Shown here one piece after another: positions 33,163-39,107 of a stretch of DNA of 64,000 bases. The DNA lies in the sequence record OZ346222.1; one strand, 5' to 3'. Numbering within the stretch: the first letter of the stretch is position 1; each line of letters begins with the position of its first letter. Position numbers and translations under genes: made by a program. Source of the DNA: a phage. The notes under the pieces were generated by a model. That model did not search any database and was not told the DNA's origin. It saw only the letters and a program-made list of their open reading frames with translations.

Positions 33163-33927
33163 TTGAAATTTATCTACAAAGAACACTACCACAAAGGTGT
33201 TGTGTGGAGCCTGTTTGACGGATCTGGTGGTGCAGTCATTGACTGGGCAAAAGCTGGGTATCTGTGCCTGTGCTTTAATGCAGAAGGTGCTGATCACGGC
33301 AGTTATGCAGAGGTGATAACCGATCATCCCAACATTCACTATGTGGATTATTGGATTGACCCATGGTTCCCTCAGGAAACTTTTTGCATGTACCCAGCTC
33401 CAGACTTTATTCTTGCATTTCCTCCGTGCACGCATTTAGCGGTATCAGGTGCTGCACATTTTAAGAAAAAGCTGGCTAAGGATCCTTTGATCCAAATTAA
33501 TGCTGTAAAGGATGCTCGGGTTGCGGAAGAGTTGGGAGAGATTTACGATTGCCCGTGGCATGTAGAGAATCCTGTAGGGGTTATGTCCACACTGTGGCGA
33601 AAACCTGATTACCGTTTTCATCCTTCGGATTATGGTGGGTATTTACCGGAGGATGATGTAAACCCCTGGTTTCCTGAATTTATAGCTCCACGTGATGCCT
33701 ATCCAAAAATAACTTGCGGCTGGATAGGCAATGGATTTATAATCCCGGCCACAAAACCTGTCCCGCAAATAGTTGACGCGGTTAGCGGGTATTCCATGCA
33801 ACACGCCAAGCTGGGTGGAAAGAGTGCAAGAACGAAGATGATCCGAAGCCTCACGCCACGTGGCTGGGCAAAAGCCGTATTCTTAGCAAACGAGCCTGTA
33901 GTAAGGAGCAGAATTAATGGGAAGTAA
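33163..33927 (+). CDS. compact DNA (cytosine-5)-methyltransferase-like protein
   Basis: Motif I-like WSLFDGSGG, motif IV-like FPPCTHLAVSG (catalytic Pro-Cys) and motif VI-like HVENPVG in canonical order; protein only about 254 aa; start placed at TTG 33163 (GGAG 8 nt upstream) because the in-frame GTG at 33133 lies inside the terminator hairpin. Confidence 0.45.
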   Translation: MKFIYKEHYHKGVVWSLFDGSGGAVIDWAKAGYLCLCFNAEGADHGSYAEVITDHPNIHYVDYWIDPWFPQETFCMYPAPDFILAFPPCTHLAVSGAAHFKKKLAKDPLIQINAVKDARVAEELGEIYDCPWHVENPVGVMSTLWRKPDYRFHPSDYGGYLPEDDVNPWFPEFIAPRDAYPKITCGWIGNGFIIPATKPVPQIVDAVSGYSMQHAKLGGKSARTKMIRSLTPRGWAKAVFLANEPVVRSRINGK

Positions 33928-35995
33928 ATTTATGGCATCTGCATACAACCGTTTCGGTGAGCCAAACCCGAAAGCAACTAAGTATAAAAGTGGGGGAAGT
34001 GTGAAACGAGACTATCGTGATGAAAAAGAGGTTGAAACTGTAGAGACTGTTTTAGAAAATACTAAAATCGTCCCTGTCCCACAACAAAATATCGGTCTGA
34101 TGGCTGCACAATATTTTGGTGTGCGATCAGCATTATCCCAAGAAGATGGTGTGACAGTCACTGCAACATATTTCCCATATTACGACCGCTACGGAAATCT
34201 GTCCGGTTTCAAAAAGCGTGACTGGACGATTCCTAAAGAGCAAAGAGGCCATTTCTCCGTTGTTGGCATAGTAAAGGCTAACTCTCAGATGTTTGGTCAA
34301 AAGCTGTGTGCATCTTCCAACAACCGTAAGCAGATTAACGTTTGTGAGGGAGAAGGTGATGTTATTGCAGCATGGCAGGCTGCATATCAGATACAAGTAA
34401 AAGGGATTCTCACCAACGCTAAAGCCCCGGCAAAGGTGAAACAGTGGGCTAAAGAGGTCCAGGACGGGATCGATGCAGTTATCAACGGTGGCGATCTGGC
34501 AGGAAAACCATGCCTGCCTTTTGTTGGAATTAACTGTGGATGTGCAAACGCAGTAGATACTTTTGCAAACAATGAGAAGTTTATCCGTAGCTATGGAACA
34601 GTTGTGCTGGCAATGGATAACGATGCAGCTAACGAGGTAGAGAAGCAAAAACACGTCATTAAAGGTGTTGAGGCCACGCACAATATCGCAGCATTTTTGA
34701 TGGCTGATAACGTTTACCACGTAGAATACCCTGGTGAAGTAAATGACCCTGACGGGGTAAAAGATATCCGTGACATGCTGAAGGCTAAAAAGCTGGAAGA
34801 TATTGTCAACATGTTCCGGCACCCTGTTAAATATGTGCCTGATGCTGTGTCGGATTTAGAAGACTTCTCTATCGAGTCTTTGCGGAAAAAGACTTCCAAC
34901 GGGGTAGATATCAGCGCAGAGTTCCCAAAACTGCAAAAAATGCTAAAAGGCTTGCACAAAGGGACACTCGTAATGCTTACAGGGCCATCAGGGGGCGGTA
35001 AAACAACTGTAGCTAAAAAACTGGAACATTGTATTGCAAGATACCTAATGGACCCGACATGCCCGAAGGCTGATGACTATGAAGAGGATGATCGTCTATG
35101 TATGATCCATCTTGAGGAGGACCCGGAGGAAGCAATTAACTCCTTGTATGCAAACCAGTTAGGGTTTGATGTTAAAGAGTTTGTTGAAGATCCTAGCCAG
35201 TTTTTAACTGATCAAGAACACGCAGAGATTCACCAATCATGGGCAAAAGCTGGAAAAATCAAAGTGTTCAAACATTTCGGATCTATTCCGGTGGACGAGT
35301 TGATTACCAAGCTTAAGCAAATGGTTTGCCTGTACCATTGCCGTTATATTGTGCTGGATCACCTGTCCATGGTAATTTCAGGGCTTAATGTTAAGGATGA
35401 GCGAAAAGAACTGGACATGGCTATGACTCAGCTGGCTGCGTTTTGTAAGCAGTTTAACGTGTTTATCTTAGTGATCGCTCACCTCAAACGTACAGAGATT
35501 GTGCCTCCTAAGGACAAGGATGGTAACCCGTTACCTTTCTGGTATCCTGTGCGAAAAGAGAATTTGCGAGGATCGGCGGGGCTTGAACAGTTGAGTTGGG
35601 TAGTCATAGGTGTCGAGGCCGAAGAAATGGTGGATCGTTCTCGTGGACGTGTCCGTCTGGTAGGTCTTAAAAACCGTCCAGCAAAAACTTTAGGTATTGC
35701 TGACACTTTGGTTATGGACCCGCACACAGGTAAGTTCCATGATGCCAGTAATTGGTACTGGGACAAAGAAATGCAAATGTTTACAGACGGAGAAGGTGGG
35801 GAGGTTGTTTGGAGACCTCAGGCTATGTTTGAGGATCAGGAGCATGCAGTTGTAGAAACACCTATGGGCAAGGTTGTGGCTGATAAGGTTGTAACTCCTA
35901 CTGTTAAGCCTGTTGACACGCAGGAAGACCTCCAGTACGATGATCCATCCTCTGACCCGGTCCCTGGTTTTGAGGATGATGAAACGCCTTTTTAA
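33917..35995 (+). CDS. DNA primase-helicase (Toprim primase fused to DnaB-like helicase)
   Basis: 692 aa; Toprim-like EGEGD and MDNDAANE motifs in N-terminal half; Walker A GPSGGGKTT and Walker B IVLDHL in C-terminal half; RBS AAGGAG. Confidence 0.65.
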   Translation: MGSKFMASAYNRFGEPNPKATKYKSGGSVKRDYRDEKEVETVETVLENTKIVPVPQQNIGLMAAQYFGVRSALSQEDGVTVTATYFPYYDRYGNLSGFKKRDWTIPKEQRGHFSVVGIVKANSQMFGQKLCASSNNRKQINVCEGEGDVIAAWQAAYQIQVKGILTNAKAPAKVKQWAKEVQDGIDAVINGGDLAGKPCLPFVGINCGCANAVDTFANNEKFIRSYGTVVLAMDNDAANEVEKQKHVIKGVEATHNIAAFLMADNVYHVEYPGEVNDPDGVKDIRDMLKAKKLEDIVNMFRHPVKYVPDAVSDLEDFSIESLRKKTSNGVDISAEFPKLQKMLKGLHKGTLVMLTGPSGGGKTTVAKKLEHCIARYLMDPTCPKADDYEEDDRLCMIHLEEDPEEAINSLYANQLGFDVKEFVEDPSQFLTDQEHAEIHQSWAKAGKIKVFKHFGSIPVDELITKLKQMVCLYHCRYIVLDHLSMVISGLNVKDERKELDMAMTQLAAFCKQFNVFILVIAHLKRTEIVPPKDKDGNPLPFWYPVRKENLRGSAGLEQLSWVVIGVEAEEMVDRSRGRVRLVGLKNRPAKTLGIADTLVMDPHTGKFHDASNWYWDKEMQMFTDGEGGEVVWRPQAMFEDQEHAVVETPMGKVVADKVVTPTVKPVDTQEDLQYDDPSSDPVPGFEDDETPF

Positions 35996-36053: not shown

Positions 36054-38483
36054 ATGAGTATGTGGTCTTTCGATTTTGAGTCATCCGGTTTGCTGGAAGA
36101 CCCAGATCTTTATTATCACTGCGGTCTGTTTAAAGAGCTGAATAAGAACCGTTTTATGCTGTTCCTTCCTCTAAATGACCGCACACACTACTCCGAGGAG
36201 GATATAGAAAAGGCTAAGAACTTCATTCTGTCAAAGAAAACTCTTTATAAAGATTTTGAAGTTCGCATAGCAGATTTTTCGGAGTTGGAAGGTTGGCTTA
36301 CAGGCAATTCTGACTGGTCACCAACAGCTTTGAACTGCCATAACTGCTACAGTTATGACTTTATGCTAATGGAAAGATTATCCGGTATTCATTTTGATAT
36401 GTTCCGTGATCCTAAATGCATGGGGACTATCAACGACCACCAGGTTAACCTGTTTGATACGTTGGCTATGAGCCGAATCTTGTGGCCTGATCGCCCTTTA
36501 CCAAAAGGTTGTCCGGACGCTGTATTCAACCCGGTTACTAAGAAAATGCAACCTGTTGGTCCTCACGGCCTTATGGCATGGGGCTACGCCCTTGGTAACC
36601 AGAAAGTTCAAATTGATGACTGGCGCGATCTTCCGTTGTGGAAGTATGTGGATCGTGTATTCGAGGACGTTATCATCCAGGAGCTGCTCTGGAAAGAGCT
36701 GGTAGCGGAATCAAAAGGTGTATTCTACGGCAAATCTGACATGCAGAACTTTATGTACGATCCAGCCAAAGAGAAGCCGAAAGGGTTCAAGAAGATCACC
36801 TGGAAGAACGCATTACGTCGAGGCATGCTGCAGCACTTCCTGATGGAGCTGCAGGCCCGTCAGGGTGTATACTTCGACATAGATGGAGCTATTGCTTTAC
36901 GTGACCGTTGCGATGCGTGGATGAAAGAAATCGCTGATCGTGTTGAACCACAACTACCTTTAAAAGAGCTGTCAATGTCTCAGCGGCCCAAGTTCCCTGA
37001 AAAGCCGTTTAACCAAGACGGGACAATCTCTAATAATGGTTGGAAATGGTTAAAAGATAAGCTTGGCTATCCTGTAGACATGAGTGCTTTAGAGTTCAAA
37101 GCCCCGCCTAAGCGAGCATTTACCTCTACAGGAGATGTCAGCAAGATGGGGATAAAATGGTGTGAAGAGATGGGCTGCAAAGACCCCGATAAGATGGCTG
37201 ATTTCTTGAGAGGCTATATTAAGGGCACCTCCACACCACAACCCTTACCTAAAGAGCTGATGGATCAGGCAATAAGTGATCTGCAGCAGAAGCGAATGCC
37301 TGACTGCAAGATACCTATGAAAATCAGCAATCAGGACGACATCAAGCGATACCTAATCAGTGCTGGTTGGCTCCCAACAATGTGGAGAACTAAAGATGTA
37401 ACTAAAGACAGCAAGAAGAAAGCTTTACCTGATGCAGATGTTGATGCACGAGTATATGCATATATGGACGAGCTTTTGGAGTCAGAGTATTGTGACCTAA
37501 TTATCAACTTCTGGAACAAAACTGATGCTAAGTTCCAGACAACCGTGCACAAGTTCCGAAGCTTTCCTAACTCCGAAAGGATTAAAAAGGAAGTATTCGG
37601 GAAAATACGTAGAAAAGCCAGGGCACTTATTACTTCTCCGCAACTGAAAGATACGTTTGGACACCTATGCCCAAATCTTGAAAAATTGAACGGAGAGATG
37701 GCTAAAGATATCGTCTTGTGGTTATCATTGCGAAACCGCAGATCGGTCCTTGATCCAATCAAGGAGGATAAGGTTGATACTGGTCTTCTTAATCACCCAC
37801 GTTTGAAGATTGACCATAAGCTTCCTGCTAAAAGCTCTGGATTAACAAACACTTCCAGACAGAAACACAGTATTTGTGCAAACATGCCTAAACCATCTCC
37901 TAAAGTGGTTATGGGTAAAGAGATGCGTAGTCTGTGGGGTGTTCCTCCGGGATACTTTGAGATCGGTATTGACGGGTCCAACTTAGAGCAGCTTATCGGG
38001 GCTTGGGGTGCCTTTGAGTTCGACAACGGCCTGTATTATGATGTTGTAAGTAACGGAGACGCACACCAAAACAATGCTGAGGCATATACAAAAGTGGCAG
38101 GCAGAGAGGTGTCCCGTAACGACGGTAAACCTATCACGTATGGGGTTATGTACGGGGCACAAAAAGATAAAGTTGCAGATATGTTGGACATCTCCCCAGA
38201 GTTGGGACAAAGGGTAATCGATGCACTCTGGGATGCCAACCCAGGTCTTAAGGGGCGCAAAGAGGATCTGGAGAAATTCTGGGAAGCAACAGGTAAGAAG
38301 TTTATCTACTCTTTTGATGGTCATGCTATCTGGACCCGATCTAAACACTCTTTACTTAATGCATACCAACAAAATGGCGGTGCATCGTTGTGTGACTTAG
38401 TTGGAATACTCATGCACCACCAGATGGTGAAGCGTGGGTGGTACGATGAAGGTGTTCGTCGTATTATTTATTACCATAAATAA
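36054..38483 (+). CDS. DNA polymerase, family A: exon 1 (3'-5' exonuclease + polymerase through motif B)
   Basis: 809-aa ORF; Exo I-like FDFESSG at N-terminus; motif A-like IGIDGSNLEQL; motif B-like KPITYGVMYGAQ; ORF terminates ...RRIIYYH-K-stop exactly where motif C (HDE) is expected. Confidence 0.7.
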   Translation: MSMWSFDFESSGLLEDPDLYYHCGLFKELNKNRFMLFLPLNDRTHYSEEDIEKAKNFILSKKTLYKDFEVRIADFSELEGWLTGNSDWSPTALNCHNCYSYDFMLMERLSGIHFDMFRDPKCMGTINDHQVNLFDTLAMSRILWPDRPLPKGCPDAVFNPVTKKMQPVGPHGLMAWGYALGNQKVQIDDWRDLPLWKYVDRVFEDVIIQELLWKELVAESKGVFYGKSDMQNFMYDPAKEKPKGFKKITWKNALRRGMLQHFLMELQARQGVYFDIDGAIALRDRCDAWMKEIADRVEPQLPLKELSMSQRPKFPEKPFNQDGTISNNGWKWLKDKLGYPVDMSALEFKAPPKRAFTSTGDVSKMGIKWCEEMGCKDPDKMADFLRGYIKGTSTPQPLPKELMDQAISDLQQKRMPDCKIPMKISNQDDIKRYLISAGWLPTMWRTKDVTKDSKKKALPDADVDARVYAYMDELLESEYCDLIINFWNKTDAKFQTTVHKFRSFPNSERIKKEVFGKIRRKARALITSPQLKDTFGHLCPNLEKLNGEMAKDIVLWLSLRNRRSVLDPIKEDKVDTGLLNHPRLKIDHKLPAKSSGLTNTSRQKHSICANMPKPSPKVVMGKEMRSLWGVPPGYFEIGIDGSNLEQLIGAWGAFEFDNGLYYDVVSNGDAHQNNAEAYTKVAGREVSRNDGKPITYGVMYGAQKDKVADMLDISPELGQRVIDALWDANPGLKGRKEDLEKFWEATGKKFIYSFDGHAIWTRSKHSLLNAYQQNGGASLCDLVGILMHHQMVKRGWYDEGVRRIIYYHK

Positions 38484-38753
38484 CATTGTGGCTTCATAGA
38501 GTAATCTATGTCGAATAACCTCTTTAACTGCGGGAAGCCTAAACCTTATGGCAAGGTAATCCGCAACGAAGCGCTCAAAAGAGCGAACGCTCAGAGGCCA
38601 TTCCGAAAGGAAGTAGACCAGCAAGTGCGGTCGAAATGGGAGGATTCCTGTGGTTGCTTATCATAGGAATATGAGATGGTCCGATCCTACGTGAAAACGT
38701 ATGGCTATGCACGTAATGGTGCGGGGTAGCTTAACGACCTACCTGAACTATTG
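38478..38753 (+). other. putative group I intron (about 276 nt, no ORF) interrupting the DNA polymerase gene at motif C
   Basis: Exon 1 ends in U (CAU His codon); intervening sequence ends in G; downstream frame resumes with GAT GAG (DE) to complete HDE; intron-internal GUGG about 10 nt in can pair with exon-terminal CCAU (P1 with U.G at splice site); boundaries +/- 2 nt. Confidence 0.5.
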
Positions 38754-39107
38754 GATGAGTACCAACTTCAAGTGCCTGACACACCGAAGTATAAGACTGT
38801 GTACACCTTCGACACAATTGAAGAACTGGAAGCATTTAAGGCAGAGCAGGAAGCCAAACTTCATGTGTTCGACGGTCATAAGTACAAAAAGGCACGCAAG
38901 GATGAGGACGGAAACGAAGTGGTTGACAGAGACGGAAACACGGTGTACGATCCTATCCTGAACGATGACGGAAAGCTTGAACTTATCTGGAGCCCTGTGG
39001 GTGAAATGGTGGTACATTGCTTCTGGCAAGCTTCTAAAATGATGGGAGTCCCGTTCCAGATCACAGGTGAATACTTGTGTGGTCGTAATTGGGGTGATTG
39101 TCACTAA
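38754..39107 (+). CDS. DNA polymerase, family A: exon 2 (motif C aspartate through C-terminus)
   Basis: Frame of track ORF 38751..39107 read from codon 2: DEYQLQV... ending ...GVPFQITGEYLCGRNWGDCH, resembling the Pol I C-terminus (...VPLLVEVGSGENWDQAH); no RBS or ATG of its own. Confidence 0.5.
   Translation, partial: DEYQLQVPDTPKYKTVYTFDTIEELEAFKAEQEAKLHVFDGHKYKKARKDEDGNEVVDRDGNTVYDPILNDDGKLELIWSPVGEMVVHCFWQASKMMGVPFQITGEYLCGRNWGDCH

Follow-up and report, generated by a model that had tools for sequence, protein, structure and literature searches.

The window, i.e. the whole stretch of 64,000 nt analysed here (OZ346222.1), derives from an rV5-like Vequintavirus with 99% identity to rV5 / O157 typing phage 5. 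On its plus strand it carries a family A DNA polymerase gene in two parts that are separated by an insert:

36054..38477, plus strand: DNA polymerase exon 1, 808 codons, ending in YYH with U38477 as last base (ORF list; Pfam DNA_pol_A and T7 gp5 matches; collinear with intron-less alleles)
38478..38753, plus strand: 276-nt group I intron of IA2 type lacking a homing-endonuclease ORF (Rfam RF00028; missing from intron-less alleles; covariation)
38754..39107, plus strand: DNA polymerase exon 2, 117 codons plus stop, opening with the Asp-Glu of motif C and reading DEYQLQV...GRNWGDCH (stop)

The intron opens with AAA UAA, so that the exon-1 frame stops after one additional codon and the unspliced ORF (36054..38483) codes for 809 amino acids with the C-terminus RRIIYYHK; this ORF and the downstream DEYQLQV frame both read as an earlier note on this DNA had them. 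When 38477 is joined to 38754, a 2778-nt ORF of 925 amino acids is obtained (...YYH/DEYQL), with ...UAUUACCAU/GAUGAGUAC as the predicted ligated-exon junction (38477/38754) and ...IIYYHDEYQLQVPDTPK as the junction peptide. As claimed in that note, the joining restores H-D-E: ...IYYHDEYQL aligns with ...AWVHDEIQV of T7 gp5 (H653-D654-E655), and the alignment spans the junction. The match to the Pfam profile DNA_pol_A extends from positions 137-261 before splicing to 137-348 after it, with a score for the spliced 925-aa protein of 31.8 bits that is still below the curated cut-off of 34.3. Exon 2 has neither an ATG nor an RBS, in agreement with the initial description. The sole in-frame start candidate after TAG 38727 is TTG 38751, and no Shine-Dalgarno-like purine run was seen by eye in the 14 nt preceding it; the next candidate, a GTG seven codons into exon 2, would lose the catalytic Asp-Glu. 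Independent translation start signals, as expected of a naturally split polymerase, were thus not found for the downstream fragment.

Intron boundaries and intron-less alleles

In four intron-less alleles (rV5_ev158, GCA_012488735.1 and two ENA metagenome scaffolds), the polymerase is a single uninterrupted gene of 2778 nt. The protein encoded by these alleles is of the same length as the spliced 925-aa construct, collinear with it and 100% identical, and moving the boundary by one base in either direction no longer reproduces the intron-less sequence. Since intron-less sister genomes encode exactly the protein obtained by the joining of 38477 to 38754, the boundaries of the intron are unambiguous, and the alignment with intron-less relatives, which had been proposed as a check, places the junction to the base. 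Excision restores the intact 925-aa reading frame, as is typical of a group I intron. Exon 1 ends in U (U38477) and the insert in G (G38753), as had been noticed. The start of exon 2 differs between the two kinds of alleles (CAT/GACGAATATCAG in the intron-less allele versus CAT/GATGAGTACCAA at the intron-plus exon junction), with five synonymous changes clustered within its first 20 nt.

Two features ascribed to the insert in the earlier note required correction. Its GC content of 46.4% does not exceed that of both flanks (44.9% upstream, 47.1% downstream), and 26% of the 276-nt tiles of the window are equally or more GC-rich. The statement that the insert holds no ORF stands for conserved ORFs only, as two ORFs touch it: one of 52 amino acids lies entirely within it (38508..38666) and one of 86 amino acids has only its start there (38701..38961). 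The rV5 record lists both as hypothetical proteins. Homologues lack the ATG of the 52-aa ORF, which belongs to the covarying 3' strand of P2, and we therefore treated both ORFs as spurious.

Secondary structure and covariation

The covariance-model search suggested for this region was positive: the Rfam family Intron_gpI (RF00028) matches 38478..38753 over the full length of the model (positions 1-253 of 253) with 64.7 bits, compared to a gathering score of 50, and an E-value of 4e-14. The scores of ORF-less homologues at the same site were 72.5-91.2 bits, and four ORF-bearing same-site introns gave no match in the Rfam search. In the whole window no other Rfam match was obtained, even at permissive E-values of up to 0.1, and a tRNA scan was likewise empty. 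The rV5 genome paper reports introns in the terminase gene only; as the window has no further Rfam match, these terminase introns do not lie in it. The structural elements are as follows:

38474..38491, plus strand: P1, CCAU/AA (38474-38479) with the internal guide UUGUGG (38486-38491); Rfam alignment
38484..38487, plus strand: P10 guide bases CAUU, candidate partner GAUG at the start of exon 2 (38754-38757); read from the sequence
38495..38510, plus strand: P2 hairpin with GUAA tetraloop; compensatory double changes in 6/6 pairs
38519..38524, plus strand: P3 5' strand, partner 38638-38643; compensatory changes in 3/6 pairs
38529..38565, plus strand: P4-P5 domain (P4 38529-38534/38560-38565, P5 38537-38539/38555-38557); Rfam alignment, MFE fold
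38572..38585, plus strand: P6 hairpin CGCUC-AAAA-GAGCG; MFE fold, with a complementary P6 stem seen by eye in each homologue, outside the counted alignment
38596..38600, plus strand: P7 5' strand GGCCA, partner UGGUC (38677-38681), pseudoknot with P3; 13-sequence covariation alignment
38601..38632, plus strand: P7.1 (UUCC-GAAA-GGAA), GUA linker and P7.2 (38616-38632, GACCAGCAAGUGCGGUC); MFE fold, covariation of P7.2
38638..38643, plus strand: P3 3' strand; 13-sequence covariation alignment
38644..38670, plus strand: P8 hairpin; 4/6 counted pairs compensatory, lengthened to 11 bp in the MFE fold
38677..38681, plus strand: P7 3' strand UGGUC; 13-sequence covariation alignment
38686..38704, plus strand: P9 hairpin with GAAA loop; 5/7 pairs compensatory
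38709..38744, plus strand: two 3'-terminal hairpins (38709-38722 and 38724-38744), P9-peripheral and beyond the Rfam model; 2/4 and 4/6 pairs compensatory
38753, plus strand: terminal guanosine (omega-G) at the 3' splice site; G in 15/15 same-site introns examined

The P1-like helix that had been proposed between GUGG 38488-38491 and CCAU 38474-38477 is found as P1 in the Rfam alignment, with the pairs C38474-G38491, C38475-G38490, A38476-U38489, U38477·G38488, A38478-U38487 and A38479-U38486, and the U38477·G38488 wobble marks the 5' splice site. P1 is invariant in 13/13 homologues, so that covariation gives no information there, and the Tyr-His codons constrain it as well. Exon 2 opens with GAUGA in 14/15 of the same-site introns examined. 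The MFE structure predicted from this sequence alone comprises P1, P2, P3, P4-P5, P6, P7.1, P7.2, P8, P9 and the two 3' hairpins (z = -2.74). Introns of subgroup IA2 have P7.1 and P7.2 between P7 and P3', connected by G-U-A (PMC3428280). This arrangement is present at 38601-38632, with covariation support from P7.2, P7.1 being outside the counted alignment.

For the covariation analysis, 13 same-site homologues from five phage groups were aligned by MAFFT with their ORF loops trimmed to NNNN; the counted structure excludes P6, P7.1, the P5 extension and the two central P4 pairs, which MAFFT misaligned. Across the 13 homologues, 98.8% of the paired cells can pair (slid controls: 34-41%), and double (compensatory) changes are seen in 29 of the 59 pairs (slid controls: 3-10). 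The covariation score of 0.483 (controls 0.05-0.11) was reached by none of 500 shuffles, and unguided RNAalifold found compensatory changes in 28/59 pairs. Covariation is strong in P2, P3, P7, P7.2, P8, P9 and the two 3' hairpins, and thus includes the P3/P7 pseudoknot. The four outer P4 pairs that were counted are all invariant and hence uninformative, and one P5 pair covaries. In P7, all cells (100%) are paired in the 13 homologues, one pair being compensatory and another changed on one side; the second pair is G·U in the 276-nt copy and also in SSE121, A-U in 10/13 aligned sequences, and A-U combined with a C-G fourth pair in SPA01. Both the MFE fold and RNAalifold also give an invariant alternative in which GUCCGA (38679-38684) pairs with the 3' splice site, in competition with P7. 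The group I core, on which the earlier note had staked its reading, was thus recovered by Rfam, by the MFE fold and by covariation of 13 sequences. Compensatory evolution throughout the ribozyme core indicates selection on the RNA structure, which is not expected of a dead insert.

Distribution of the intron and its relatives

Introns lie at the H/DE site in Vequintavirus, Certrevirus, Seunavirus, Avunavirus, K412/qdvp001-like Vibrio phages and the Pakpunavirus SPA01. Of 60 Vequintavirus records in a spread sample, 27 were intron-less (approximately 45%), 14 had the 276-nt form, 2 a form of approximately 328 nt and 17 a larger insert. Among close relatives the intron is therefore present or absent at a single site, as is characteristic of mobile introns; a conserved ORF for a homing endonuclease, the other characteristic, was not found within 38478..38753. 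Such genes are found in relatives, with an HNH gene in the P6 loop of APECc02, SSE121, CR9, A5-4 and SPA01 and a LAGLIDADG ORF inside P7.1 of the same-site intron of PVP-SE1. Pfam matches back the HNH (APECc02, CB7) and LAGLIDADG (PVP-SE1) assignments, with the HNH_3 match of APECc02 (19.8 bits) being below the curated cut-off of 24.8. In the phage navn, a free-standing HNH gene adjoins the polymerase gene.

In an intron-only search, 23 deposited records had the 276-nt form at 99% identity or more. Its P5 extension and P7.1 are far smaller than in the ORF-less variants of 317-329 nt, and the homologues of Vibrio phages are shorter still (253-254 nt), with higher Rfam scores. Members of one mobile intron family are found at this site in many phages, the 276-nt copy being a minimal one without ORF.

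Relation to known introns

The intron is real but already known, and its novelty was rated too high at first, as public records and one paper already name it. The same element, a 276-nt insert with identical ends and position, is present in LL12 (MH491969) and RudolfGeigy/Bas52 (MZ501102, BASEL collection), and the RudolfGeigy intron is 100% identical to that of the window over 276 nt. In both records the polymerase is a two-piece joined CDS, in LL12 with the note 'intron-interrupted gene; intron splice site predicted based on homology', and according to the LL12 paper, predicted intron sequences interrupt the polymerase gene. The two records name no RNA class, secondary structure or experiment, and nothing structural differs. 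In CB7, the intron CB7_50 lies at the same site, with CB7_51 ending in RRIIYYHK and CB7_49 containing DEYQLEV. This intron was removed from mRNA in vivo, as demonstrated by RT-PCR and Sanger sequencing of the cDNA-derived products (PMC7344957). Its 5' end (AAGUAACAUUGUGGCU) and 3' domain are homologous to the 276-nt intron, but it comprises 687 nt, with a 127-aa HNH ORF from L5 through P6 and a long P5 extension, whereas the 276-nt copy is ORF-less. The CB7 polymerase gene has a second intron farther upstream.

Motif C of E. coli Pol I is His881-Asp882-Glu883, with Asp654 as the T7 counterpart. PMC3428280 places the gene 5 introns of the T7-like coliphages ΦI and W31 at 'site 881 (E. coli numbering)' and describes them as IA2 with an HNH ORF in P6a. 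We likened these introns (AY769989/AY769990) to the present one by reported site, subgroup and ORF position, and the HNH-bearing relatives found here likewise have their ORF in P6. Since site 881 is the motif C His in Pol I numbering, the H/DE site is apparently the same. The ΦI and W31 introns are said to self-splice in vitro, in work by Bonocora and Shub of 2004. They contain an endonuclease gene (I-TslI in W31), unlike the 276-nt copy.

The IA2-type introns of SPO1, SP82, Bastille and Pf-WMP3 also interrupt a conserved functional region of family A polymerase genes, with an in-frame stop at or just past the 5' splice site, and encode HNH nicking endonucleases (PMC3428280). Their site is a different one, at 674 in E. 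coli numbering in the fingers subdomain (676 in phiL7), and all of them contain an endonuclease ORF (PMC3428280), in contrast to the 276-nt copy. Taken as one family, the introns at the H/DE boundary of motif C span at least five phage groups and three kinds of cargo (none, HNH, LAGLIDADG); as a conserved homing site, this is a tidy example and no new principle. The practical consequence is one of annotation, as the entries of the type genome rV5 (RefSeq NC_011041) and of many relatives show, in place of one spliced 925-aa gene, a truncated polymerase, a further fragment called 'DNA polymerase' or hypothetical, and the two spurious ORFs.

Proposed splicing and alternative readings

With a probability of about 0.93, 38478..38753 is a 276-nt ORF-less group IA2 intron that separates the His codon from the Asp codon of motif C in the family A DNA polymerase gene, and its splicing is proposed to proceed as follows. 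Transcription would run through the intron in the polymerase gene, and the intron RNA would form the P1-P9 ribozyme. Exogenous guanosine would attack after U38477, positioned by the U·G wobble of P1, and the 3'-OH of exon 1 would then attack after G38753, with exon 2 being aligned by P10 (GAUG with CAUU). The resulting mRNA would code for one 925-aa polymerase with the HDE catalytic triad whole, and ribosomes on unspliced RNA would be halted by the UAA two codons into the intron.

It is highly improbable that the 276-nt form, albeit a genuine group I intron, splices poorly or depends on host factors or on particular nucleotide or translation states, and in this way throttles or times the polymerase instead of leaving the phenotype unaffected. 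Its peripheral elements are shortened relative to the 317-329-nt variants, the second P7 pair is G·U, the P7 3' strand is predicted to pair alternatively with the 3' splice site, and a 'molecular on-switch' has been discussed for phage introns of Bastillevirinae (PMC11878797). However, the form is at least 99% identical in 23 records and present in approximately 14/60 sampled Vequintavirus records, and thus compatible with good fitness, and the even shorter Vibrio homologues have higher Rfam scores.

We regard it as highly improbable that the insert is derived from an intron but splicing-dead, and that the 809-aa protein ending in YYHK assembles non-covalently with a C-terminal polypeptide, comparable to the HNH-split NrdA of Aeh1. 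The frame of exon 1 does end at a stop, the second codon of the insert, and several public records show two separate polymerase CDSs. In addition, the CB7 paper describes one HNH-associated insert that is not spliced and cites the split NrdA of Aeromonas phage Aeh1 as precedent (PMC7344957), both of which favour two polypeptides. On the other hand, the same-site CB7 intron does splice (PMC7344957), exon 2 has no ATG or Shine-Dalgarno-like sequence, with TTG 38751 as the only upstream in-frame start, the ribozyme core is still under compensatory evolution, and the split would part His from Asp-Glu inside one catalytic motif. An intein was rejected as the exon-1 frame meets UAA after one codon, and an assembly artefact as dozens of independent genomes share the insert. 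A naturally split two-subunit polymerase was likewise rejected, since exon 2 lacks a credible start signal and His would be divided from Asp-Glu.

Possible mobility of the ORF-less form

The HNH or LAGLIDADG endonucleases of relatives presumably spread the intron to intron-less alleles. A more specific proposal, which we consider doubtful, is that the 276-nt variant is no decaying relic and persists through mobilisation in trans. The HNH endonucleases would come from co-infecting relatives, encoded either in the 842-nt form or free-standing as in navn; the synonymous cluster in exon 2 would then be a signature of co-conversion or nuclease immunity that also optimises P10. If this were true, the genus would provide a natural system of the homing cycle with four coexisting alleles, i.e. 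the empty site, two ORF-less ribozymes and the intron bearing an endonuclease gene. As a separate observation, the polymerase genes of 241Ecol014PP and JEP1 contain a candidate intein at another place.

Polymerase gene and boundaries of the insert

The polymerase region of the window (36054..39107) is 99.0% identical to those of Escherichia coli O157 typing phage 5 and phage V5/rV5, all of the genus Vequintavirus, and is matched by >100 related records. The features concerned are:

33917..35995, primase/helicase gene upstream of the polymerase (DnaB_C and AAA_25 domains)
36054..38477, exon 1 of the family A DNA polymerase gene
38478..38753, 276-nt insert
38754..39107, exon 2

The 809-aa ORF 36054..38483 ends in ...RRIIYYHK and a stop codon, and ORF 38751..39107 reads DEYQLQV...GRNWGDCH-stop from its second codon onward. 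Joining 38477 to 38754 in silico yields a 2778-nt ORF of 925 codons with ...YYH/DEYQL at the junction, and extends the Pfam DNA_pol_A match from profile positions 137-261 to 137-348. Since the alignment with T7 DNA polymerase spans the junction (...AWVHDEIQV, ending at residue 658, over ...IYYHDEYQL), the Asp-Glu pair corresponds to T7 D654/E655, the catalytic pair of motif C. The ORF and this alignment bear out the proposal of the earlier note that the gene is interrupted in motif C and that joining restores H-D-E.

The boundaries follow from intron-less alleles. The phage rV5_ev158 carries a single uninterrupted 2778-nt polymerase gene, collinear with the spliced construct (nucleotide identity 96.9%). 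The intron is therefore 38478..38753 (276 nt), exactly as had been proposed; a shift by one base in either direction destroys the match. The 925-aa protein was also found, exact, as a single called gene in public data (EFF5076588.1), and three further assemblies encode it contiguously. All 87 nucleotide differences between the intron-less alleles and the window are silent.

Group I identity and fold

From end to end, the Rfam group I intron model aligns to 38468..38703 with 64.7 bits (E 4e-14; gathering score 50), thus recovering the core that the covariance-model search was meant to reveal; the window gave no other Rfam hit (E up to 0.1). As had been read from the sequence, exon 1 ends in U (U38477), the insert ends in G (G38753), and GUGG (38488-38491) pairs with the exon-terminal CCAU (38474-38477); the Rfam alignment places the U38477·G38488 wobble in P1. 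The single-sequence minimum-free-energy fold gives P1, P2, P3, P4-P5, P6, P7.1, P7.2, P8 and P9 (z = -2.74), plus two further 3' hairpins past P9. GUA joins P7.1 (UUCC-GAAA-GGAA) to P7.2, which agrees with the linkage quoted for subgroup IA2 in PMC3428280. P10 may form by pairing of CAUU 38484-38487 with GAUG, the four bases that open exon 2. Both the minimum-free-energy fold and RNAalifold also pair GUCCGA (38679-38684), which overlaps the P7 3' strand, with UUG/GAU at the 3' splice site (38750-38755). This pairing is invariant in 13/13 sequences, so covariation is no guide to it; it could represent a competing conformer or chance.

Two other claims about the insert fared less well. It is not GC-richer than its flanks (46.4% versus 44.9% and 47.1%), and 26% of equal-sized window tiles are as rich. 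Nor is it strictly free of ORFs, as it holds one of 52 aa and the beginning of another of 86 aa, both annotated in rV5; the ATG of the former, within the covarying P2 3' strand, is missing from homologues. These ORFs (38508-38666 and 38701-38961), listed in rV5 as gp222 and gp221 ('hypothetical protein'), lie across the ribozyme core and the intron/exon-2 boundary, and almost certainly they are artefacts of annotation. For rV5 gp220 the start lies within exon 2, at a GTG seven codons in.

Same-site homologues and covariation

An intron-only search found relatives in 118 phage records. All 15 introns extracted lie between the His codon and the Asp-Glu of the same motif and end in G. The HNH and LAGLIDADG assignments are backed by Pfam, and the ORF-less introns score 72.5-91.2 bits on the Rfam group I model.

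Table. Introns at the polymerase site (phage; group; length; cargo).
Window (= rV5, LL12, RudolfGeigy, navn); Vequintavirus; 276 nt; none
JLBYU08 / JEP1; Vequintavirus; 329 / 328 nt; none
APECc02; Vequintavirus; 842 nt; HNH in P6
18-1-2; Avunavirus; 317 nt; none
CB7 / CR9; Certrevirus; 687 / 772 nt; HNH
A5-4; Vequintavirinae (record gives no genus); 772 nt; HNH
SSE121; Seunavirus; 771 nt; HNH
PVP-SE1; Seunavirus; 919 nt; LAGLIDADG in P7.1
K412, 424E50-1, 10AMN, qdvp001; Vibrio phages; 253-254 nt; none
SPA01; Pakpunavirus (Pseudomonas); 792 nt; HNH

In PVP-SE1 (L019 659-1578), P7.1 holds a LAGLIDADG_2 endonuclease (61 bits) and the HNH gene found in P6 elsewhere is absent, so a single ribozyme scaffold carries different endonuclease families in different loops. 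In Vibrio phage 1.161.O (L020 1501-1584), a 3' domain of this family (~80% identity over 83 nt) is flanked by two ribonucleotide reductase small-subunit CDS fragments, and therefore belongs to a related intron in a different host gene.

In an alignment of 13 of the extracted introns with ORF loops masked, unguided RNAalifold recovered P1, P2, P3, P7.2, P8, P9 and the 3' hairpins, with 28/59 pairs compensatory. A hand-drawn group I topology including the P3/P7 pseudoknot was then counted against slid-partner controls: 98.8% of cells were standard pairs (controls 34-41%), 29/59 pairs changed on both sides (3-10), and the covariation score was 0.483 (0.05-0.11). None of 500 shuffles matched the observed values for four of five measures; for the fifth, further standard pair types, 199/500 did. 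Covariation says nothing on P1 and the four counted P4 pairs, none of which varies, and P6 and P7.1 were assessed by eye only because their lengths are too variable for MAFFT.

Proposed splicing and alternative explanations

The Rfam match, the fold, the covariation and the intron-less alleles agree in supporting a group I intron. Transcription would pass through it, its RNA would fold as a ribozyme, guanosine would attack after U38477 and the exon-1 3'-OH after G38753, and the ligated mRNA would encode a single 925-aa polymerase. Fold, boundaries and homology are observed for the window copy, and its catalysis we infer. The closest experimental support comes from the CB7_50 intron, for which RT-PCR on infected cells, with Sanger sequencing of the cDNA-derived products, showed excision from the mRNA (PMC7344957). 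Its site is identical to that in the window: CB7_51 ends in RRIIYYHK-stop and CB7_49 contains DEYQLEV. A non-splicing insert, with the polymerase made in two pieces, is unlikely because exon 2 is without a start signal, the cut would fall inside a catalytic motif, and compensatory evolution over the whole core would not persist in a dead insert. The intron opens with AAA UAA, which halts ribosomes nearly immediately. That the group I intron is splicing-impaired or regulatory we regard as very improbable.

Distribution and exon 2 differences

From the 117 Vequintavirus records matching the exon junction, a spread sample of 60 was taken, which includes some RefSeq/GenBank duplicates.

Table. Forms of the site in sampled Vequintavirus records.
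Intron-less; 27/60
276 nt; 14/60
~328 nt; 2/60
Larger insert; 17/60

The 276-nt and 329-nt introns share only 69% identity, against ~96-97% between the polymerase exons of these phages and those of the window (JEP1 flanking exons 97.5%); the intron variants therefore appear to be separate lineages swapped at a single site. Of the 87 silent differences from the four intron-less alleles, five lie in the opening 20 nt of exon 2 (38754-38773; GATGAGTACCAACTTCAAGTG in the intron-plus window versus GACGAATATCAGCTTCAAGTC). The rate is 16.7% in the first 30 nt versus 3.1% overall, ~5x gene-wide; a co-conversion tract, immunity to a homing endonuclease or P10 optimisation are possible reasons. About 16 unannotated MG0656xx records, titled 'Campylobacter phage' with C. 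jejuni as host, share 96-98% identity with the window in the polymerase region and have the same forms of the intron; they appear to be Vequintavirus genomes whose host label is doubtful.

Known introns and other inserts

The intron is not new but an ordinary, previously annotated member of a known family. The LL12 record gives the polymerase as a joined CDS and remarks 'intron-interrupted gene; intron splice site predicted based on homology', that of RudolfGeigy (BASEL collection) is likewise joined, and the LL12 announcement states that predicted intron sequences disrupt the polymerase gene (PMC6658697). The rV5 genome paper gives introns in the terminase gene only and a 775-aa polymerase (PMC3606486), and the rV5 RefSeq record still has two polymerase CDSs plus spurious ORFs. 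The main use of the present analysis is thus to correct the annotation of rV5-type records.

In E. coli Pol I, Asp882-Glu883 come directly after His881, so the ΦI and W31 introns of T7-like phages, going by their reported site number, apparently occupy the same site. These are described as IA2 introns that carry an HNH gene in P6a and lie at 'site 881 (E. coli numbering)', and the polymerase introns of SPO1, Bastille and Pf-WMP3 are placed at site 674, unlike that of the window (PMC3428280).

A second, ORF-bearing interruption lies upstream in the polymerase genes of CB7 (L009 1957-2671), SSE121 (L012 18-538) and 18-1-2 (L011 436-1156); the window has no insert at this site. Its ORF is labelled HNH in CB7 and SSE121, whereas the 18-1-2 record calls it a 'hypothetical protein', and in CB7 the following exon starts MYGAQ..., near motif B. 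In navn, a putative free-standing HNH endonuclease gene (L007 1-504), absent from the corresponding window position, ends 4 nt inside the polymerase gene start. In two Vequintaviruses, 241Ecol014PP (L003 1486-4884) and JEP1 (L013), exon 1 encodes 1132 aa rather than 809, with an in-frame insertion of ~320 aa and a weak Hint_2 match (residues 672-706); the intron-bearing gene thus probably contains an intein as well.
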